A stretch of 64,000 nucleotides of DNA. Origin: Cyanobacteria bacterium P01_A01_bin.123. GTDB lineage: Bacteria > Cyanobacteriota > Cyanobacteriia > Phormidesmidales > Phormidesmidaceae. The stretch covers positions 32,001 to 96,000 of the forward strand of contig JBCBZT010000004.1 in assembly GCA_039815185.1 (NCBI GenBank), read 5' to 3'. Positions 7,412 through 60,479 of the stretch are shown one piece after another (position 1 is the stretch's first letter; each line of letters starts with the position of its first letter). Under the pieces are notes generated by a model. It saw nothing but the letters and a program-made list of their open reading frames with translations, was not told the DNA's origin and did no database searches. The position numbers and the translations under genes are program-made.

Positions 7412-8257
7412 CTAAGACGGGGCAAATCGAGTTAGGGGCTTAACCTGCCTCAGTTCTTCGCTAATCGCTTGATGGAGATGGCCGTTGCTGGCCAATATTC
7501 GCCCGGAATAGATGTCAAAGGGGCTTTGATCGTAAGCGGTAACCTGTCCCCCCGCTTCTTCAACCAATACGGCCCCTGCAGTCAAATCCCAGGGAGAAAG
7601 CCCCCGTTCCCAGTAGCCATCGAGTCGCCCGCAGGCAATGTAGGCTAAATCAATCGAGGCTGCCCCACCCCGCCTAACCCCCTGGGTAAGGTGGGTAAAG
7701 TGGCAAAATTCGGCATAGTTATTATCAAGGCGTTCTCGGCGATCGTAGGCAAACCCAGTGACCAGTAAGCTTTGAGCAAGAGTTGGGGTCTTGGAAACCT
7801 GAATGGGGCGGCGATTGCAGGTCGCTCCCAAGCCCTTGGCCGCGCGAAATAGCTCTCGGTGAAAGGGGTCATAAATTGCACCGACAACCGGAACTTGGTT
7901 AATCAACAAACCGATAGACGCGGCTGAAAAGGGATATTGATGGGCGTAGTTTGTGGTGCCGTCTAGGGGATCAATGGCCCACAGATAGGGAGAGGCTTGG
8001 GTGCCGATTTGCCCAGACTCCTCTGCCAGAATGGGGTGATTGGGGAGATGACGTCTGAGCACGGCAAGAATTTCGGCTTCTGCCGCCTTATCGGCTTCAG
8101 TAACGAGATCGCCGGGCCGGCCTTTTTCTTCGATTTGGCTGAGCTTGCCCCAGTATTGCTGCAAGATTGCCCCAGCGGCTAGGGCTGCTTCAGTGGCGAT
8201 CTCTAAAAAGCGCTGGAGGTCTTCAGCATTAGGCGAAATCGGATCGGGGGAAGTCAT
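7412..8257 (-). CDS. suhB: Inositol monophosphatase family
   Basis: DLVTEAD, WAIDPLDGTTNY and WDLTAG motifs. Confidence 0.92.
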   Translation of the reverse strand: MTSPDPISPNAEDLQRFLEIATEAALAAGAILQQYWGKLSQIEEKGRPGDLVTEADKAAEAEILAVLRRHLPNHPILAEESGQIGTQASPYLWAIDPLDGTTNYAHQYPFSAASIGLLINQVPVVGAIYDPFHRELFRAAKGLGATCNRRPIQVSKTPTLAQSLLVTGFAYDRRERLDNNYAEFCHFTHLTQGVRRGGAASIDLAYIACGRLDGYWERGLSPWDLTAGAVLVEEAGGQVTAYDQSPFDIYSGRILASNGHLHQAISEELRQVKPLTRFAPS

Positions 8258-49916: not shown

Positions 49917-52805
49917 ATGATGAAGCGCTCTAGATGGCGATCGCGTTTAATAGCCGTAACCCTAGCGATCGCGACATGGCTGTTAGTGACGGTGCCCGCA
50001 CAATCCACTCTCCCTTTCAATTGGGAAGACAATGTCTGGCTGCAGACAGTTGCGAATCGTCAAAATGTCCAGCAAAACAATGTCCTGCGAACAAAGCAAC
50101 AAGATTCAGGGCAGACAGTCTTGCTGAGGGTTGAAGGGGTTTTAGAAACAGGTGATCTAGCTTTCGAGGATGGCAGCCTCTACGACGTTCATCCCTTTGA
50201 AGGCGAATCAGGGCAAGCCATCACGATTCACATGATGAGTGACGAATTTGACACTTATTTAATCCTGGTCAATGCAGAAGGAGAAGCCATTGGCAGAAAT
50301 GACGATTCAACATCCTTAGAAACCAACTCAACCCTGACAATATTGCTGCCTGAAACAGGGACTTATCGCATCATTGCTAACGCGTTTGATGCCACTGGAC
50401 AAGGAAACTATCAAATAACGGTTTCAATCGCGAGTGATTTTGAGGTTCAGCAATTAGAAGCTGATCGTTTGTTCCTCCAAGGCGGTCAGCAATATCAAGT
50501 CAGCCAGTTTCAAGCTGCTTTGCAGTCTTGGCAGCAAGCCTTAGAGATTTATCAATCCATCGGCATGTCTGAAACAGCAGTTTACGCCTTAAGCGGTATA
50601 GGCAATGCCTATTTTTCCCTAGGTCAATATCAGCAAGCCAGCAGTTTTTACCATCAATCTTTAGAGATGGCTGATGATCTCGGCGATCGCCAAGCCCAAG
50701 CCACTGCTCTTGGCAACTTAGGTCTGATTTACGAAGCTTTAGGTCAATATCAGCAAGCGATTGAATCGCATCAGCAATCCTTAGCTGTCGATCGCGCCAT
50801 TAACAATCGTCGAGGAGAAGCCGTTTCCCTAGGCAACTTGGGTAATGTCTATTATTTTCTAGGTCAATATCAACGAGCCATTGAGTTTCATCAGCAATCG
50901 TTGGCTATCAATCGCAACATCAGCAATCGTCAAGGAGAAGCCGTTTCCCTAGGGAATTTAGGGCTTGCCCATGGCGCATTAGACCAGTATCAGCAGGCAA
51001 TTGACTTGCATCAGCAATCGTTGGCTATCAATCGCGATATTGGTAATCGTCAGGGAGAAAACACGACCCTCGATAATTTAGGGAGTGTCTATTATTCATT
51101 GGGTCAATATCAGCAAGCACTTGACTTGTATCAGCAAGCTTTGGACATCGCTCTCGAAATTGGCGATCGCCAAGGCGAAGGCAACCTCCTTGTCAATCTG
51201 GGTGAAATTCACAATGCCCTGGGTCAATATCAGCAAGCGCTTGACTTGTATCAGCAAGCCTTGGGTATTGCTCGCGAAATTAGCGATCGTCAAGTGGAAG
51301 CCATTGCTCTTAATAACCTCGGTTCGTTGTTCATCAGCACCAATCAATGGGCTGAAGCTGAAATCGCACTAACACAATCTATCGAAGCCTACGAATTACT
51401 GCGAACTGATTTAAGCGATACTCAACTCATCTCTATCGCCGATACCCAAGCCGCTACCTATGCCCACCTAGAAAAGGCATTAACCGCCCAAGGCAAAACA
51501 GCCGAGGCACTAGAAACCACAGAACGCGCCCGCGCTCGCGCCTTCGTGCTGCAACTTGCGAGCCGCCTCTCCAACCCGGAAGAACCAGTTGCCCCAGATG
51601 GCTCTAATCTAGATGGCTCTAACGGTGTAAATTCTGCTTCTATTGCTGAGATTCAGCAAATCGCCCGCAACCAAAACGCCACACTCGTCACCTACTCCCT
51701 GATTTTCGATGAAGCTTTGTATATCTGGGTCGTGCAACCCTCCGGCGAGGTTGAGTTTCGCTCGGTGGAATTGGGTGAGTCTGATAGTCTCCCCAACCCT
51801 ATTGCCACGATTGATGGCCCCGTTTATCGCGGTGATTCAGATGCTTCAGAACTAGACACCTTAGTTGCCGAGACGCGGGCAGGCATTGGGGTTGTGGCTA
51901 ACAGCATTCCTTCTGAACGACTCAAAGACTTGCACCAGATTTTGATTGATCCAATCGCAGATTTACTCCCGACTGATCCCAATGCAAATGTCGTTTTCGT
52001 GCCCCAAGGGAGTCTCTTCTTAGTGCCGTTTGCGGCCTTGCAAGATACTGACGGCACCTACCTGATCGAAAAACACACGGTATTAACTGCCCCGTCAATT
52101 CAGGTGTTAGGGCTAGTGTCTAGGGACGCCCCTGGCCAGAGCAGTGCAGCGTTGTTACAACAAGATAACGCCTTAGTGGTGGGGAATCCGCTCATGCCAG
52201 AGGTTGTCGTTCTGGGTGATGAGGGACTACAACCCATTCGACTTGCTCCCTTACCTGGAGCCGAAGCTGAAGCTTTAGACATTGGCAATTTCCTCAACAT
52301 TTCGCCCTTGATTGGCGATCAAGCCACCGAAGCCCAGATTAAGCAACAGCTTCCCACGGCTTCCCTAATTCACCTGGCAACTCACGGCTTGCTCGAATAT
52401 GGTGACCCCCAATCTTCCGGCGTTCTAGATTTACCGGGTGCCCTGGCCCTCACCCCTGGCGATGGCGAAGACGGATTGCTGACTGCCGCCGAGATTCTAG
52501 AAATGGACTTGCAGGCCGAGCTAGCGGTTCTAAGTGCTTGCGATACAGGGCGTGGACGAATTACGGGAGACGGTGTGGTAGGGCTGTCGCGCTCCTTAAT
52601 TACAGCTGGCGTCCCCAGCGTAATTGTGTCGCTGTGGGCGGTTCCCGATGCGCCCACAGCTGCGTTGATGACGGAATTTTATCGTCAGCTCCAGCAGGGG
52701 CGGAGCAAGGCTCAGGCGCTACGGCAGGCGATGTTAGCAACGTTGAACGATTCACCGGAACCAGTCAATTGGGCAGCGTTTACATTAATGGGAGCAATCG
52801 AGTAG
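49917..52805 (+). CDS. PPC-TPR-CHAT protein, copy 3
   Basis: Same architecture, with HLATHG and LSACDTG. Confidence 0.92.
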   Translation: MMKRSRWRSRLIAVTLAIATWLLVTVPAQSTLPFNWEDNVWLQTVANRQNVQQNNVLRTKQQDSGQTVLLRVEGVLETGDLAFEDGSLYDVHPFEGESGQAITIHMMSDEFDTYLILVNAEGEAIGRNDDSTSLETNSTLTILLPETGTYRIIANAFDATGQGNYQITVSIASDFEVQQLEADRLFLQGGQQYQVSQFQAALQSWQQALEIYQSIGMSETAVYALSGIGNAYFSLGQYQQASSFYHQSLEMADDLGDRQAQATALGNLGLIYEALGQYQQAIESHQQSLAVDRAINNRRGEAVSLGNLGNVYYFLGQYQRAIEFHQQSLAINRNISNRQGEAVSLGNLGLAHGALDQYQQAIDLHQQSLAINRDIGNRQGENTTLDNLGSVYYSLGQYQQALDLYQQALDIALEIGDRQGEGNLLVNLGEIHNALGQYQQALDLYQQALGIAREISDRQVEAIALNNLGSLFISTNQWAEAEIALTQSIEAYELLRTDLSDTQLISIADTQAATYAHLEKALTAQGKTAEALETTERARARAFVLQLASRLSNPEEPVAPDGSNLDGSNGVNSASIAEIQQIARNQNATLVTYSLIFDEALYIWVVQPSGEVEFRSVELGESDSLPNPIATIDGPVYRGDSDASELDTLVAETRAGIGVVANSIPSERLKDLHQILIDPIADLLPTDPNANVVFVPQGSLFLVPFAALQDTDGTYLIEKHTVLTAPSIQVLGLVSRDAPGQSSAALLQQDNALVVGNPLMPEVVVLGDEGLQPIRLAPLPGAEAEALDIGNFLNISPLIGDQATEAQIKQQLPTASLIHLATHGLLEYGDPQSSGVLDLPGALALTPGDGEDGLLTAAEILEMDLQAELAVLSACDTGRGRITGDGVVGLSRSLITAGVPSVIVSLWAVPDAPTAALMTEFYRQLQQGRSKAQALRQAMLATLNDSPEPVNWAAFTLMGAIE

Positions 52806-52831: not shown

Positions 52832-55468
52832 ATGATAAAGCGCTTTAGATGGCGATCGCGATTAATGGCCTTAACCTTAGCAGTGGCAATCTGGCTGTGG
52901 GTCACGGTGTCAGCTCAATCAACTTACCCTGCTTATCCAGAAGGCAATGGTCTACCACAGGTAGCTTTTAGCCATGAGACCCGTCAAACTAAGCAGCAAG
53001 ACTCGGATGGCACGGTCTTACTTGAAGTCGAAGGCACCTTAGAAACGGGCGATTTAACGCTTGAGAATGGCAGTCTCTACGATATTCATCCCTTTGAAGG
53101 TGAAGCCGGGCAGGTCATCACGATTCAGATGATCAGTGATGAGTTTGACACGTTTATCGGGTTGGTAAACCCCGCGAGACAACCCATTGGTGAAAACAAC
53201 GACACAACGGCCTCAGAGACGAACTCAACCCTGACGATAACGCTGCCTGAAGCCGGAATGTATTTGATTATTGCCATTGCCTTTAATGACGCCGGGCAAG
53301 GGAACTATCGGTTAATCGTTTCAACCGCTAACCCCGCTGAAATTCAGCGATTAGAAGCTAACCATCTGCTCGATCAAGGCAATCAATACTATCGAACCAG
53401 CCAGTTTCAAGCCGCGCTGGAATCTTGGCAGCAAGCGTTAGACCGTTATCAATCGATTGGCGAAACCTATGGCACGAGCAAAGCTCTACGCACCAGCGAA
53501 GCGATCACGCTAGACCACTTGGGTCTTGCTTACTATGCTCTGGGTCAATATCAGCAGGCGATTGAGTTCCATCAGCAAGCCTTAGCAATTGTTCGCGAAA
53601 TCGAGCTTCCTCAACTGGAAGCAAACACGCTGGACAACTTGGGACGGACTTACTATGCTCTGGAACAGTATCAGCAGTCGCTTGAATCCTATCAGCAAGT
53701 GTTGGAGATTGCTCGCGAAGTCGGCGATCGTGAGGATGAGGCCGACGCTCTGAGCAACTTAGGACTCGCCTATCATGCCCTAGGCCAATATGAACGTGCT
53801 ATTGACGTTTATCAGCAATCGCTGGCAATCGCTGGCAACATCGGCGATCGCCAAGGGGAAGCGAATGCCCTCAACAATCTTGGCGGTGTTTATGATGCTT
53901 TGGGTCAATCTCAGCGCGCGATCGCGTCTTATCAGCAGTCTCTAGACATTACCCGCGACATCAGCGATCGCAGCGGTGAAGCCAAGTCTCTGAGTAACTT
54001 AGGTCTATCGTTGATCAACACCGATCAACTCGCTGAAGCTGAAAGCGTCCTCGCGCAATCCGTTGAAATCTTTGAATCCCTGCGAACTGACTTACCTGAT
54101 GCCCAACTTATTGCACTCGCAGATACCCAAGCCGCTACCTACACACTGCTAGAACAAGTGTTGATAGCTCAAGGTAAAACCGCTGAAGCCCTGGAAACCA
54201 CAGAACGTGCTCGCGCCCGCGCCTTCGTACTGCAACTTGCGAGGCGTCTCTCAAACCGGGAAGAGCCCACTACCATAGCCGAACCCGAAGCCATAGCGCT
54301 GCCCACGATTGCCGAAATTCAGCAAACTGCCCGTGACCAAAACGCCACACTGGTGACCTATTCTCTGATTTTTGATCAAGCCTTGTATATATGGGTCGTG
54401 CAACCTTCCGGAGAGATTGAGTTTCGCTCAGTTGGGTTTGACGGGTCTGGCAGTCTCTCGAACCCGATCGCCGCCATTGATGGCCCAGTCTATCGGGGCA
54501 ACTCAAACCCCTCAGAACTCAACACCCTAATCGCAAACTCACGCAGAGGCATTGGCGTTGTCGAAGGAATTTCCACTGAACAACTCAAGGCACTGCACCA
54601 AGTGCTGATTGATCCAATTGCCGATTTGTTGCCCACCGATCCAGAAACCAATGTTGTTTTCATCCCTCAAGGCAGTTTATTCCTGATTCCCTTTGCAGCA
54701 CTGCAAAATGCGGCGGGAACTTACTTGATTGAAGCGCACACGGTGTTGACTGCGCCGTCGATTCAGGTATTGGATTTAACGAGTCAGGAAGCCCAAGGGG
54801 GGAGAAGAGAAGGGTTTTTATTGCACGATAGGGCATTGGTGGTAGGAAATCCAGTGATGCCTGAGGTGTGGCTACCGAGTGAAGATGGCTTACAAGCGTT
54901 ACAGCTTGTGCCCCTTCCTGGTGCAGAAGTCGAAGCGTTGGCGGTTGGCGATTTTTTAGACGTTGCACCATTGATTGGCGATCAAGCCACCGAAGCGCAG
55001 GTCAAACAGCAGCTTGCCAATGCTTCGCTGATTCACTTCGCGACCCATGGCTTGCTGGAATATGGCGACCCTCAAGCTTCCGGAGTGCTGGATATACCAG
55101 GCGCTCTAGCCCTGACTCCCGGCAATGGCGAAGATGGCTTACTGACGGCAGCTGAGATTCTAGAGATGGACTTGCAGGCCGAGCTAGCAGTTCTCAGCGC
55201 CTGCGATACAGGACGGGGGCGGATTACGGGAGATGGTGTGGTCGGACTGTCGCGCTCCTTAATTACAGCTGGTGTGCCCAGCGTGGTCGTATCGCTATGG
55301 GCGGTTCCCGATGCACCGACAGCGGCGTTGATGACGGAATTTTATCGTCAACTCCAACAGGGGCAAACCAAGTCTCAAGCTTTACGGCAGGCCATGTTAG
55401 TGACCCTAAAGAATTCTCCAGAACCCATCAACTGGGCAGCGTTTACGCTGATTGGCGCATCAGATTAG
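52832..55468 (+). CDS. PPC-TPR-CHAT protein, copy 4 (fewer TPRs)
   Basis: Same architecture in 878 aa, with HFATHG and LSACDTG. Confidence 0.92.
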   Translation: MIKRFRWRSRLMALTLAVAIWLWVTVSAQSTYPAYPEGNGLPQVAFSHETRQTKQQDSDGTVLLEVEGTLETGDLTLENGSLYDIHPFEGEAGQVITIQMISDEFDTFIGLVNPARQPIGENNDTTASETNSTLTITLPEAGMYLIIAIAFNDAGQGNYRLIVSTANPAEIQRLEANHLLDQGNQYYRTSQFQAALESWQQALDRYQSIGETYGTSKALRTSEAITLDHLGLAYYALGQYQQAIEFHQQALAIVREIELPQLEANTLDNLGRTYYALEQYQQSLESYQQVLEIAREVGDREDEADALSNLGLAYHALGQYERAIDVYQQSLAIAGNIGDRQGEANALNNLGGVYDALGQSQRAIASYQQSLDITRDISDRSGEAKSLSNLGLSLINTDQLAEAESVLAQSVEIFESLRTDLPDAQLIALADTQAATYTLLEQVLIAQGKTAEALETTERARARAFVLQLARRLSNREEPTTIAEPEAIALPTIAEIQQTARDQNATLVTYSLIFDQALYIWVVQPSGEIEFRSVGFDGSGSLSNPIAAIDGPVYRGNSNPSELNTLIANSRRGIGVVEGISTEQLKALHQVLIDPIADLLPTDPETNVVFIPQGSLFLIPFAALQNAAGTYLIEAHTVLTAPSIQVLDLTSQEAQGGRREGFLLHDRALVVGNPVMPEVWLPSEDGLQALQLVPLPGAEVEALAVGDFLDVAPLIGDQATEAQVKQQLANASLIHFATHGLLEYGDPQASGVLDIPGALALTPGNGEDGLLTAAEILEMDLQAELAVLSACDTGRGRITGDGVVGLSRSLITAGVPSVVVSLWAVPDAPTAALMTEFYRQLQQGQTKSQALRQAMLVTLKNSPEPINWAAFTLIGASD

Positions 55469-55707: not shown

Positions 55708-56805
55708 TTAGCCGATAGACGGTGATCCAGGGGTTGCCACTGGCACAACATCATTAGCTGCCAAATCGAGCGGAAAGTTATGCGCATTGCGCTCGTGCAT
55801 CACTTCCATGCCTAGATTGGCTCGGTTAATCACATCTGCCCAAGTGCCAATTACACGACCCTGTGTATCCAAAATGGACTGATTGAAATTAAATCCATTC
55901 AGGTTGAATGCCATGGTGCTGATGCCCAATGCTGTAAACCAGATACCGAACACGGGCCAAGCGGCAAGGAAAAAGTGGAGTGACCGACTATTGGCCTTGA
56001 CACCCAAAACGATCTCATTGGTTCGCCCTACCAGACGACCAAAGTAGCCATGGGCCGCCATGATGTTGTAGGTTTCCTCTTCTTGACCAAACTTGTAGCC
56101 GTAGTTCTGAGACTCAGTCTCGGTGGTTTCCCGAACTAAGGTAGAGGTCACTAGGGAGCCGTGCATCGCACTAAAAAATGCACCGCCAAATACCCCCGCT
56201 ACACCCAACATGTGGAAGGGGTGCATCAAGATGTTGTGCTCAGCTTGGAACACGAACATGAAGTTGAAGGTACCCGAGATACCCAAGGGCATGCCATCAG
56301 AGAAGGAACCCTGACCCAAGGGGTAAACCAAGAACACAGCGGTAGCTGCGGAAACGGGTGCAGAGTAAGCCACACAAATCCAAGGACGCATGCCCAATCG
56401 GTAGGACAGCTCCCACTGACGACCCAGATAAGAAAAAATGCCGATGAGGAAGTGGAAGACAATGAACTGGTAAGGCCCACCGTTGTACAACCACTCATCG
56501 AGGGAAGCTGCTTCCCAGATGGGGTAGAAGTGCAGGCCAATGGCGTTGGAGGAAGGTACCACTGCACCGGAGATGATGTTGTTGCCGTACATCAAGGAAC
56601 CGGCAACGGGCTCACGGATACCGTCGATGTCAACGGGAGGAGCGGCGATGAAGGCGATGACGAAGCAGGTGGTGGCAGTCAGCAGCGTGGGGATCATCAA
56701 TACGCCAAACCAACCTACATAGAGGCGGTTTTCGGTGGAGGTGATCCAGTTACAAAACCGCTGCCACAGATTGACGCGATCGCGTCTCTGCAGAGTTGTG
56801 GTCAT
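55708..56805 (-). CDS. psbA: Photosystem II D1 protein, atypical variant with remodelled QB loop (365 aa)
   Basis: Unambiguous D1 sequence. Y161, D170, E189, H190, H198, H215, H252, H272, H332, E333, H337, D342 and A344 (standard numbering) are present. IFQYASFN is replaced by [13 protein letters not shown]. Confidence 0.97.
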
Positions 56806-56840
56806 GGTTAAGGATAAAGAAAAACGACATGATAAAGCAG

Positions 56841-56927
56841 TTAACTAACTAGATAGTTAAACTAACTTGTTAGTTAATTTAAAGTAGGAATTTAAATCTG
56901 TCAATGACTTTTTAACTAGTTAGTTAA
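56841..56927. promoter_or_regulatory. Three palindromic operator-like boxes (consensus AACTAACnnGTTAGTT)
   Basis: ttaactaactagatagttaa (56841-56860), aactaacttgttagtt (56860-56875) and taactagttagttaa (56913-56927), between psbA and the divergent TetR gene. Confidence 0.8.
56876..56904 (-). promoter_or_regulatory. Sigma70-type promoter of psbA
   Basis: On the minus strand: TTGACA (56904-56899), a 17-bp spacer, then TAAATT (56881-56876). Confidence 0.75.
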
Positions 56928-56994
56928 TTTCTTGCGAGAAGCTACCCTGGCTGAACCCAGATGGAGCATCGTATTCTAGGTATAGACACCTTGT

Positions 56995-57669
56995 ATGGAG
57001 CCCGTAGTGAAGTCATCAGCCAAAGGCAAACGATCCGCGACAACTCGAACAGTCCGCAATCCAGAATCTACCAAGGCGCAAATTCTAGATGCTGCTGAGG
57101 AAGAGTTTGCCCGCTATGGGTTGGCAGGAGCCCGAACCGAGCCAATCGCCGCCAATACAGGCGTGACTAAAGCCATGATTCACTACTACTTCGGTACTAA
57201 AGAAGAGCTGTATCAGGCTGTTTTGAAGCGCCACGCAGCGTCTTTTCTAAATGCGGTTGAGCAGCTCGATCTAAATGATTTATCACCTGAAGAAGCCCTA
57301 AAGAAGATTCTGAGGCTTGCTGTCGTGCACGAAAGTACGCAGCCCTATCAAGGTAAAGTTCTGCTCCACGAAGCGATGACCAATGAGGGTAAATATTTCA
57401 AGCTCACGGGATGGGAAGTTCCACTCGGTACATTGGCAGAAGTTTTAGCAAGAGGCGTCAAGGAGGGCTGTTTTCGCACCCTCGATCCTTGGTTAACGAT
57501 GGTTCACATTATGGGGGTGATAACCTTTTACTTCAACGCAGCCAATAACCTTAAGCAACTTGCGCCCTTGAACGACTGTCAAAGTCCAGAAGCAATTGAG
57601 CAATTTGAAGAGTCTGCGATCGCGTTTATCCTAGCAGGTATACTCAAGCAGCCTTTAGTGGACGATTAG
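56995..57669 (+). CDS. TetR/AcrR family transcriptional regulator
   Basis: N-terminal HTH ILDAAEEEFARYGLAGARTEPIAANTGVTKAMIHYYFGTKEELY and a C-terminal ligand-binding domain with GVKEGCFR. Confidence 0.94.
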   Translation: MEPVVKSSAKGKRSATTRTVRNPESTKAQILDAAEEEFARYGLAGARTEPIAANTGVTKAMIHYYFGTKEELYQAVLKRHAASFLNAVEQLDLNDLSPEEALKKILRLAVVHESTQPYQGKVLLHEAMTNEGKYFKLTGWEVPLGTLAEVLARGVKEGCFRTLDPWLTMVHIMGVITFYFNAANNLKQLAPLNDCQSPEAIEQFEESAIAFILAGILKQPLVDD

Positions 57670-57721: not shown

Positions 57722-57976
57722 CTAGTCCGCTTCTGGATCAATACCGAGTTCACGCAGTCTAGCAGCCAAGACTTCAGCTCGTTGCCGTTCCTGTGCAGCC
57801 TGCTGTTGGGCTGTGGGCTGGACGAAACCTGCGGCCTCAAGAGCATCGGTGAGCGCGGCGGCAAGGGCAGGTTGCTGGATATTTTCCACAGGGTTATCGG
57901 GTAAAACATAATCTGCGGGGAGTGCCTCCCAAGTGATGGTCGGGCTTTGTTGGGTGGGGCGGACTTGCAAAACCAT
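57722..57976 (-). pseudogene. Internally deleted Uma2 (DUF820) endonuclease-family gene
   Basis: A Uma2-type N-terminus (ITWEALPADYVLPDNPVENIQQPALAAALTDAL) is fused in frame to the typical tail QERQRAEVLAARLRELGIDPE. The nuclease core is absent. Confidence 0.75.
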
Positions 57977-59474: not shown

Positions 59475-60479
59475 CTATTGATTTACCAACACCTCAACGC
59501 CATCAACAACGCGCTGAACCACGCCAGTGAAAAATTCGAGGTCGAGCGTATCAAGCGTGTCCGTGGGTTGATGGTAATGGGGATTTCGAAAGTTGGCTGT
59601 ATCGGTCACCATGACAGCGCCAATGCCGTTTTGCCAAAACGGGACATGATCGCTCCGCGCCAGGTCTGGCAGCAAATCTGGACTTAGGGGCACGGGTAGG
59701 ATAACAGCTGCGGGTTCTTGGGGGCGATCAACGGATTGAAAGGCAGCCAACAGTTCGGGATGATCGGCATCGCCAATGAAGCCAATAAACGTACCGCGAT
59801 CGCTCGGTGGCGTAATCGGCAACCCTTCAGGATAGGTTTGGCAGCCCGGTTGGTTGCAGGTGTAGCCCACCATGTCTAAAATCACGGCCCCTATCAGGGA
59901 GTCGAGGTTTGCAGATTGATTAGCATGGGCGAAACTGCCCAATAGCCCTGCTTCTTCTAAATCGAAGAAAACCAGCCGCAGCGATCGCGTGGGGGGCTGT
60001 TCTGCATAAATTCTGGCAATTTCTAATAGGGTAGCGACGGCGGTGGCGTTGTCGTCAGCGCCGGGGGAATCTTTCACGGTGTCATAGTGGGCACCGACAA
60101 GCAGGGTTTCTGCGTCCTCTGGCGTATTCGGTTGCTCGGCAATCAGATTGATACCCGCCGCAAAGGGTTCCAGTCGGGTTTGCCAGCCTAAATTTTCCAA
60201 GGTATCGACCAGGTAGGTCCGAGCCCGATCGCGATCGGCGGCTTCAAATCGGGGATAGTCTAGCGCCGTGAGATCTGCCACCAAGCGATCGCGTTCCACC
60301 GTTGGCAGACTTTTGGGAAATTGCCCCGGAGAGGCGATCGCGGCAGTCCCAGTGGGGTGGAGTGCAGAGCGTACTGGTGCAGGGATATCATCGGGTTCGA
60401 GGGCCAGGGTGATTAGGATCAAGGCAGCGATCGCAGATGCTATGATCAGCCCCAATCGTTTTCTGAGTATGCGATTCAT
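59475..60479 (-). CDS. M28 family peptidase, membrane-anchored
   Basis: GAHYD, GADDNA, DLEEAGLLGS, DMVG, RSDH and YHQPTD. Confidence 0.92.
   Translation of the reverse strand: MNRILRKRLGLIIASAIAALILITLALEPDDIPAPVRSALHPTGTAAIASPGQFPKSLPTVERDRLVADLTALDYPRFEAADRDRARTYLVDTLENLGWQTRLEPFAAGINLIAEQPNTPEDAETLLVGAHYDTVKDSPGADDNATAVATLLEIARIYAEQPPTRSLRLVFFDLEEAGLLGSFAHANQSANLDSLIGAVILDMVGYTCNQPGCQTYPEGLPITPPSDRGTFIGFIGDADHPELLAAFQSVDRPQEPAAVILPVPLSPDLLPDLARSDHVPFWQNGIGAVMVTDTANFRNPHYHQPTDTLDTLDLEFFTGVVQRVVDGVEVLVNQ

Follow-up and report, generated by a model that had tools for sequence, protein, structure and literature searches.

The window described here, the whole 64,000-nt stretch of DNA that we analyzed from Cyanobacteria bacterium P01_A01_bin.123 (contig JBCBZT010000004.1, positions 32,001 to 96,000), carries a variant psbA gene whose product, a D1 protein of photosystem II (PSII) that we call D1v, has a rebuilt QB loop, and this gene lies head to head with that of a TetR-family regulator. 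Our comparisons indicate that D1v is a conserved family under selection, and its interpretation as an alternative D1 that is ligand-gated and altered in its QB niche has good support. The safest statement would be that D1v is a conditionally expressed D1 whose sole designed difference is its QB/inhibitor niche.

A preliminary description of the window had reported an intact psbA with an altered QB loop, a TetR gene facing it across a 189-bp spacer, and in that spacer a TTGACA-17-TAAATT promoter overlapped by palindromic boxes, and all of these elements were confirmed (Table 1). The variant psbA open reading frame (ORF) is uninterrupted and full-length, and its product belongs to the D1 family, scoring 750.3 bits against TIGR01151 (psbA; cut-off 596) and 304.9 bits against PF00124. 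The assembly to which the window belongs (G000, contig C35; 8.09 Mb in 133 contigs) also has a standard psbA on contig C124, which is 89% identical to D1v by genome search and 88% by alignment. In alignments with the other psbA copies of this genome, residues 259-266 (IFQYASFN in those copies) are exchanged in D1v for a 13-residue segment, a net gain of five residues. The canonical QB loop IFQYASFNNSR, with S264 and F265, is therefore absent from D1v; it is present in all 15 standard copies from related genomes. Could the loop be a frameshift or an artefact? Alignment of the DNA of D1v with the copies of its own genome rules this out, because the exchange is clean and in frame.

Outside the loop, after which D1v numbering equals the standard numbering plus five, the functional residues of D1 are kept. 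D1v retains Y161, D170, E189, H190, H198, H215, Y246, H252 and F255, as well as H277, H337, E338, H342, D347 and A349, which correspond to H272, H332, E333, H337, D342 and A344 of standard D1. The ligands of the Mn4CaO5 cluster (D170, E189, H332, E333, D342 and A344), YZ (Y161) and H190 are accordingly all present and are invariant in a 16-sequence alignment, as are the non-haem iron ligands H215 and H272 (H277 in D1v) and the P680 ligand H198. A C-terminal extension follows the residue equivalent to A344. As judged from these residues, the donor side of D1v is fully preserved, as a working replacement would need.

The search for other D1 proteins with this insertion that the preliminary description had proposed revealed a conserved family. 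From the motif R-L-[VI]-G-R-x-N-E-x-x-L-G-x-x-A-N we derived, by back-translation, a degenerate 48-nt pattern, which matches the window at 55990-56037, and scanned a collection of 185,579 species with it. The pattern was found in 45 stretches in 45 species genomes, 43 of them labeled as cyanobacteria in their records and two (L025 and L046) only as "uncultured bacterium"; as a control, the reversed pattern matched none of the 173 genomes of the window's order, of which the true pattern matched 26. A region-restricted protein search likewise returned 365-aa D1 proteins with the D1v loop from Leptolyngbyaceae, Chroococcidiopsidaceae, Chroococcales and Anabaena records. By record title, carriers include the culture-collection strains Leptolyngbya PCC 7375 and PCC 6406, LEGE and FACHB strains of Nodosilinea, Gloeocapsopsis crepidinum LEGE 06123 and Anabaena CCY 9613. 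The two Leptolyngbya PCC strains, Nodosilinea and G. crepidinum have the TetR-linked type of locus, whereas Anabaena CCY 9613 and Leptolyngbya sp. FACHB-8 have the type with a STAND regulator (see below). The 43 distinct D1v sequences, from at least five families, are full-length open frames in which G260, R261, N263, E264, G268 and A271 of the loop do not vary and L267 is kept in 42. Compared with 15 standard D1 sequences from six related genomes, they show consistent differences at the loop, at position 209 (Ala in 39 of 43 D1v, Ser in 15 of 15 standard D1) and at position 281 (A in D1v versus G in the standard psbA copies of this lineage) alone. All six carrier genomes that were examined also keep standard psbA copies. 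Among sequencing runs, the DNA of the window was met only in metagenomes, and no RNA run of this organism turned up. In four unrelated metatranscriptomes searched at 80% likeness, the conserved parts of psbA were covered and the loop was almost uncovered, a result that is uninformative on the expression of D1v.

Further copies lie at the margins of this family. A diverged subtype of 364 aa with an insertion of four residues occurs at L058 (G021, contig C40) and L094 (G022, contig C641); the niche positions equivalent to F211, M214, Y254, F255, G256 and L271 are altered in it as well, and in both genomes a TetR gene lies divergent to it, with two perfect boxes. Since this subtype escapes the loop pattern, the D1v family is larger than 45 species. 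At L018, from a metagenome-assembled genome (MAG) labeled Microcoleus, only residues 192-357 of the variant psbA are found (7746-8243), in the middle of a 90-kb contig, and this fragment may be either a truncated copy or an assembly artefact. Contig C95 of the window genome holds, at ~120.8-136.1 kb, a psbA 79% identical and, with an N-terminal extension, a ChlF-like D1 56% identical, with a 33%-identical match of unassigned type between them; this group looks like a far-red-light cluster.

How did the loop persist? In a D1 tree of 67 rows the 43 D1v sequences form one clade among standard-type D1 (SH-like approximate likelihood ratio test, SH-aLRT, 99), and when the loop columns are removed the single clade is lost and the D1v label needs three changes. 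Codon-level comparison of D1v with standard psbA in six genomes helps to account for this. In G157 the third-position identity of D1v is 85% with its own standard psbA versus at most 63% with other D1v, and in the window genome the values are 67% and at most 63%; these two D1v genes each cluster with their own standard copy (SH-aLRT 98 and 96), and those of G007, G053 and G104 cluster together (SH-aLRT 99). Gene conversion among copies is known for psbA families, and the pattern indicates that the flanks of D1v have been homogenised with standard psbA by this route in two of the six genomes, the loop having been kept in all. That the loop has in every case survived such homogenisation of its flanks argues for selection acting on the loop as such.

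The regulator has a TetR helix-turn-helix (HTH; PF00440, E = 6e-13) and a TetR_C_29 ligand domain (PF17938, E = 5e-8). Its AlphaFold2 model, built with 53 relatives (predicted local distance difference test, pLDDT, 90.4), has 10 helices, with an N-terminal HTH and a helical C-terminal domain, and so shows the TetR fold. By tblastn, ORF clustering and a TetR tree we tallied its linkage to D1v over the 45 loci. An orthologous divergent TetR is present at 27 loci, and at 11 others orthologues of a ~1200-aa STAND NTPase-WD40 protein occupy this divergent position. The upstream region is uninformative at five others, as L022, L028, L029 and L034 end at contig ends and the L018 fragment lacks D1 residues 1-191, and two single loci, L012 and L049, complete the tally. 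Linkage to a TetR thus came out as the preliminary description had predicted at 27 loci; its replacement at the 11 others by a STAND-WD40 protein with a different, activator-type promoter had not been foreseen. In 25 of the 27 loci the TetR gene lies 190-470 bp from D1v; at L035 and L041 it is 1.4-1.7 kb away and the operator-promoter unit still lies immediately 5' of psbA. L012 was not accepted as a case of TetR linkage, as its downstream, same-strand TetR belongs to another TetR subclade and its contig stops 593 bp upstream of D1v. L049 has an amidase upstream of D1v, but another contig of its genome, G010, begins with the TetR, the boxes and the 5' end of a psbA, and the lack of a regulator at L049 is most likely due to a broken or chimeric assembly.

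In the order to which the window belongs, the association is close to complete: the TetR is found in 25 of the 26 pattern-positive genomes, the 26th being interrupted by a contig end, and, three fragmentary matches left unassigned, the complete TetR matches of at least 54% identity all adjoin a variant psbA or, at the edge of a contig, face the 5' end of a psbA. The genes around D1v and TetR vary by locus, apart from synteny among close relatives, which identifies the D1v/regulator pair as the conserved unit. One genome, G075, has two complete D1v/TetR modules (contig C12, ~70.9-72.8 kb; contig C21, ~276.6-278.5 kb), whose TetR proteins are 55% and 57% identical to that of the window. The tetR gene is interrupted beside an intact variant psbA at L027 (two frames of 97 and 207 aa) and, by an in-frame TAG, in G016 (contig C144) and G141 (contig C64); these carriers may be natural derepressed strains or may reflect MAG sequencing errors.

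The spacer (56806-56994) contains a single promoter-like site, directed at psbA and agreeing with the consensus at 10 of 12 positions. Box 2, the perfect 7-2-7 palindrome AACTAACnnGTTAGTT (AACTAAC-nn-GTTAGTT), abuts its -10 element and covers the predicted transcription start; it is predicted to be the principal operator of TetR. Box 3, a similar palindrome that deviates by one mismatch, lies 3' of the predicted start, and Box 1 (TTAACTA-nn-TAGTTAA) is immediately upstream of the -35 element, a position at which other lineages have a perfect AACTAACnnGTTAGTT. The 8.09-Mb genome has one exact box and two sites at up to one mismatch, all inside this spacer, where our own chance estimate per genome is ~0.03 exact and ~1.3 at up to one mismatch; by this estimate the occurrence of the box in the spacer exceeds chance. 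At up to two mismatches there are 12 sites, of which the 10 elsewhere have exactly two, below the chance estimate of ~26. Since the window genome has no other box with one mismatch or none, the regulon of this TetR looks local.

Conservation of the divergent TetR and of its box, which the preliminary description had named as the point to check, was borne out: in addition to the TetR at 27 of 45 loci, the AACTAACnnGTTAGTT box (up to one mismatch) is present in all 29 TetR-linked spacers examined, and is exact in 21. In 27 of these 29 spacers a TTGAC(A/G)-N16-18-TAnnnT promoter is aimed at psbA with a box starting no more than 2 nt past its -10 element, and in most lineages a second box lies right upstream of the -35. 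The arrangement is still found where TetR identity has fallen to 44% (L055). The comparative footprint therefore places a palindromic operator at the regulated promoter in every spacer examined, and from its geometry a repressor bound to Box 2 would be expected to occlude the start of a near-consensus promoter.

At the 11 loci L013, L014, L015, L025, L026, L040, L043, L044, L047, L051 and L053 the STAND protein takes the place of TetR, divergent from D1v. These partners are 53-85% identical over their first 560 residues and consist of a conserved N-terminal domain of ~85 aa, a variable linker, an NB-ARC/NACHT NTPase core and ~12 WD40 repeats. An HTH could not be assigned to them: the N-terminal domain has only sub-threshold matches to Sigma70_r4 (E = 0.04-0.09, in two of three proteins) and no match in the PDB. 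The palindrome was not seen when the STAND-linked spacers were read, no box scan having been run on them. In 10 of the 11 the densest cluster consists of three to five same-strand TAACT repeats ~10-13 nt apart, and in the spacers read (L013, L014, L015, L043 and L053) this cluster abuts a weak -35 element upstream of a good -10, which gives the psbA promoter the look of an activator-dependent one. In the D1 tree TetR-linked and STAND-linked D1v interleave inside one well-supported D1v subclade, which suggests that the regulator has been exchanged in evolution while dedicated control was kept. About 10 paralogues of the STAND partner (40-50% identity) are encoded elsewhere in the window genome.

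What would such a gene pair do? Starting from the intact gene, the conserved loop, the gene linkage, the conserved and consistently placed operators and the local regulon, we infer repression, release by a ligand, incorporation into PSII, a changed inhibitor sensitivity and the nature of the signal. Our best explanation, which we hold tentatively, is a two-gene, ligand-gated alternative-D1 module in which a QB-site aromatic is the trigger and the variant is less sensitive to it. A TetR dimer on the palindromic operators, which flank the near-consensus sigma-70 promoter and overlap it, would silence the variant psbA, and binding of a small molecule by TetR would let the promoter fire. As D1 is constantly renewed in the PSII repair cycle, the variant would then take the place of standard D1 through that cycle. 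D1v itself would be a normal water-oxidising D1 except for the rebuilt S264/F265 loop, with its five additional residues, and S209A, so the exchanged PSII would have altered QB-site binding properties. The likeliest trigger would be a QB-site-directed aromatic compound, such as an allelochemical of competing mat organisms or a xenobiotic. A QB-site toxin may be the trigger and, by analogy with S264 mutants, D1v may be insensitive to that inhibitor; that TetR or STAND-WD40 detects such toxins and swaps a toxin-insensitive D1 into PSII via the repair cycle is, as a whole, possible and short of probable.

Several lines of evidence led us to rank a response to inhibitors first. Loss of S264 is described in PMC4408414 as the classic herbicide-resistance change, at the cost of slower transfer from QA to QB. 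A study of S264V in PsbA3-PSII (10.1101/2025.05.14.654172) gives a reoxidation of QA- at least 10-fold slower, weak inhibition by herbicides and more singlet oxygen. Altered QB sites would thus cost electron-transfer efficiency, and this cost would explain why D1v is repressed by default. The preserved donor side is a second line. The closest paralogues of the TetR (41-51% identity) provide a third, in a setting that the preliminary description did not foresee, as they adjoin aromatic-compound oxygenases, an arylamine N-acetyltransferase and a major facilitator superfamily (MFS) transporter. These neighbors are flavin adenine dinucleotide (FAD) monooxygenases at L057 and L060, Rieske/VanA-type oxygenases at L059, L061, L062 (with the MFS transporter) and L063, and the N-acetyltransferase (PF00797) at L056; one of the nearest paralogues also has a related operator. 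The oxygenase and N-acetyltransferase neighbors suggest a TetR clade tuned to aromatic compounds. Directly 3' of D1v at L029 and L031, moreover, there is an arylamine N-acetyltransferase (PF00797) with an AraC-type regulator. Lastly, PSII-inhibiting allelochemicals of cyanobacteria are documented, PMC2525484 naming cyanobacterin, fischerellins and hapalindoles.

Other observations weigh against an inhibitor response. The link to aromatic detoxification comes from eight paralogue loci and two D1v loci. The closest solved relatives of the TetR, from PDB sequence search and Foldseek (RutR, whose ligand is uracil, and an uncharacterised Novosphingobium TetR, 2qtq; TM-scores 0.75-0.84), are uninformative on its ligand. 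Eleven of the 45 loci use the STAND-WD40 regulator, and regulators of both kinds also serve endogenous signals. The AlphaFold2 model of D1v (33-sequence alignment; mean pLDDT 39, predicted TM-score 0.28) is not usable and the loop alignment is ambiguous, so no spatial replacement for S264 and F265 can be assigned, and the residues lining the QB niche cannot be placed from this model. Finally, an insertion of five residues with conserved R, N and E exceeds what resistance needs, for which point mutations suffice, and this surplus elaboration hints at an additional or different role.

Such a role is the substance of the strongest rival, which we consider somewhat unlikely: D1v may be a physiological acclimation isoform, its regulator sensing an endogenous metabolite (for instance quinones or quinols, breakdown products of lipids or pigments, or acyl-CoAs) and the variant retuning QB binding, protonation or the redox gap for recurring mat states, among them over-reduction of the plastoquinone pool, anoxic or sulfidic conditions, rewetting and very strong light. 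D1v would then parallel D1:2, D1' and far-red D1, and the psbA isoforms described so far are all acclimation isoforms (see the listing in PMC2776144). The carriers are, by their record titles, benthic, crust or mat genera, the conserved polar residues R261, N263 and E264 near the QB protonation site suit tuning over exclusion of a ligand, and recruitment of two unrelated types of regulator is expected if tight conditional expression matters. Yet the described isoforms are not known to be under a dedicated adjacent regulator of one gene, being controlled by global light, redox or oxygen regulators, and they alter scattered residues and not the S264/F265 loop; a literature search combining TetR with psbA and the D1 protein returned just engineered systems or unrelated topics; and the nearest TetR paralogues would control aromatic-compound enzymes.

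Could the loop instead bind plastoquinone poorly, making D1v an acceptor-side brake, a protective parked PSII switched on by a metabolic signal, which would serve on the acceptor side a purpose like that of the sentinel (rogue) D1? The S264 side chain and the F265 backbone, which both hydrogen-bond the distal QB carbonyl, are displaced in D1v, S264V alone makes formation of QB- inefficient in PsbA3-PSII according to 10.1101/2025.05.14.654172, and strict default repression fits a form that lowers yield. We nevertheless think this improbable, because the donor-side ligands and the CtpA processing site, needless in a parked center, are conserved, unlike in sentinel D1, for which PMC4408414 reports loss of donor-side ligands, and because the main family keeps H215, H252, F255, Y246 and the L271 equivalent, which argues for a working quinone site.

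We give similarly little credence to self-immunity, in which carriers would make a QB-site inhibitor, TetR would sense this product and the cell would switch to an insensitive D1. A resistant duplicate target under a product-sensing TetR is common in antibiotic producers, a cytochrome P450 lies beside tetR in the window, and two other loci have a LanC-like gene and a C39-peptidase ABC exporter in their vicinity. The neighborhood is not conserved, however; the P450 has no counterpart in the 45 loci, the module stands by itself as a pair among differing neighbors, and among 98 of the 133 neighbor ORFs of at least 250 aa, the 35 not scanned being mostly from near-duplicate loci, there is no nonribosomal peptide synthetase or polyketide synthase and no recurrent biosynthetic theme, on which grounds we rejected a conserved biosynthetic cluster around the module. 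That D1v is a decaying or mis-assembled psbA copy and TetR merely a neighbor regulating itself has next to no probability. Assemblies are often interrupted at psbA copies, the contigs of several loci stop within the gene, and contig L049 has the variant without a regulator; the comparative data nevertheless already contradict this reading, as full-length frames with the invariant loop recur in 43 distinct sequences, 27 of 29 spacers have an operator directly next to the psbA -10, and the missing elements of L049 are found elsewhere in its genome.

Table 1. Features of the variant psbA/tetR region and its neighbors in the window (strand +, - or not applicable,.).
Feature	Position	Strand	Remarks
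Secreted-looking protein	49917-52805	+	962 aa
Secreted-looking protein	52832-55468	+	878 aa; TPR repeats, C-terminal CHAT protease domain
Variant psbA (D1v)	55708-56805	-	365 aa, uninterrupted, full-length D1
Rebuilt QB loop, codons 259-271	55993-56031	-	13 residues for 8; S264 and F265 gone
Codon 209 (Ala), S209A	56179-56181	-	consistent D1v change outside the loop region
Box 3	56843-56858	.	operator-like palindrome, 1 mismatch
Box 2	56860-56875	.	perfect 7-2-7 palindrome
psbA-directed promoter	56876-56904	-	-35 TTGACA 56904-56899; 17 nt; -10 TAAATT 56881-56876
Box 1	56912-56927	.	TTAACTA-nn-TAGTTAA
TetR-family regulator	56995-57669	+	224 aa; PF00440 HTH, TetR_C_29 ligand domain
84-aa ORF	57722-57976	-	no Pfam match
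Cytochrome P450	58053-59462	-	PF00067, E = 1e-72; convergent with tetR
M28 peptidase	59475-60479	-	not conserved with module

Of the genes that flank the pair in the window, the P450, the 84-aa ORF, the M28 peptidase and the CHAT proteins are not conserved beside the module across the 45 loci, apart from a partial match to the 84-aa ORF at L020, where its first 36 residues recur within a Uma2-family ORF, and a weak CHAT match at L033. The two secreted-looking proteins downstream of D1v are tandem paralogues; the domains of the 878-aa protein were identified with Pfam, and the 962-aa protein clusters with it.

The literature searched, which did not extend to the possibly relevant Sheridan et al. 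(2020), yielded no description of the D1v class or of a TetR- or STAND-linked psbA, and term searches in Cardona et al. (2015; PMC4408414) and in PMC12096807, a 2025 AlphaFold survey of D1, located no passage on it. The variation is of wider interest in several respects. If a natural, widely conserved D1 keeps water oxidation with a rebuilt loop, changes at the QB site would be tolerated well beyond what mutants have led one to expect, and D1v gives a new way to study how QB is bound and protonated and how inhibitors are discriminated. Few protein segments in oxygenic photosynthesis are as conserved as the QB loop of D1, which is also the target of major herbicide classes and several natural algicides. 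If the regulator senses QB-site compounds, a layer of chemical warfare in microbial mats would come into view, along with a biosensor for PSII inhibitors; if the proposed function is true, it would be the first inducible resistance in nature to act at a reaction-center core, and the 13-residue loop a ready-made natural herbicide-tolerant, water-oxidising QB site. Our observations suggest that PSII may be re-fitted on demand in many mat-forming cyanobacteria, and because several carriers are in culture collections, the question of function is directly testable.

Among known systems, D1v would be classed with the psbA isoform families (D1:1/D1:2, D1', far-red, sentinel, ChlF), with an unusual regulatory logic. 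Like these isoforms it is an extra paralogue beside standard copies and is presumably swapped in as D1 turns over. In the tree it falls among standard (G4-type) D1, and it has evolved in concert with the standard copies; it differs in the exchange of the S264/F265 loop with all Mn-cluster ligands kept and in its dedicated adjacent TetR or STAND regulator. It is not a microaerobic D1' (group 3), as it has G80, F158 and T291 (equivalent to T286), the standard state at the positions that we take to mark D1' (G80A, F158L, T286A). Nor is it a sentinel (rogue) D1 (group 2) or ChlF (group 1), its ligands being intact and no insertion being present at G253; PMC4408414 describes loss of Mn ligands (E333, D342 and others) in groups 1 and 2 and a one-residue insertion at G253 in group 2. 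With the herbicide-resistant psbA point mutants (S264G/A/T/V, F255Y, V219I and others) D1v shares the loss of S264, the anchor of triazines, ureas and QB, and by analogy with the accounts in PMC4408414 and 10.1101/2025.05.14.654172 weaker inhibitor binding and slower QA-to-QB transfer would be expected. Those mutants, however, are point changes in a working gene, whereas D1v is a natural, ancient and conserved 13-for-8 loop exchange in a separate, regulated copy.

In its regulation the module resembles TetR-TetA pairs, with which it shares the head-to-head layout, palindromes over the target promoter, a local regulon and the TetR fold, but those pairs control a pump or a detoxifying enzyme and the D1v module a replacement copy of a drug target, the core of the PSII reaction center; its tetR promoter is also without a visible box overlap. 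STAND-family signal-transducing transcription regulators are known in MalT and the AfsR/SARP-type proteins. The STAND partner likewise combines an NB-ARC/NACHT core with a repeat sensor (WD40), upstream of a weak -35 with direct repeats, and its DNA binding is putative, its N-terminal domain reaching just sub-threshold Sigma70_r4 matches. In mecA with MecI/MecR1, and in the resistant target copies of antibiotic producers, a costly insensitive target is kept silent until the drug is sensed. The same logic of inducible target replacement may, by analogy, apply to D1v, with the organism, the target and the regulator all different.

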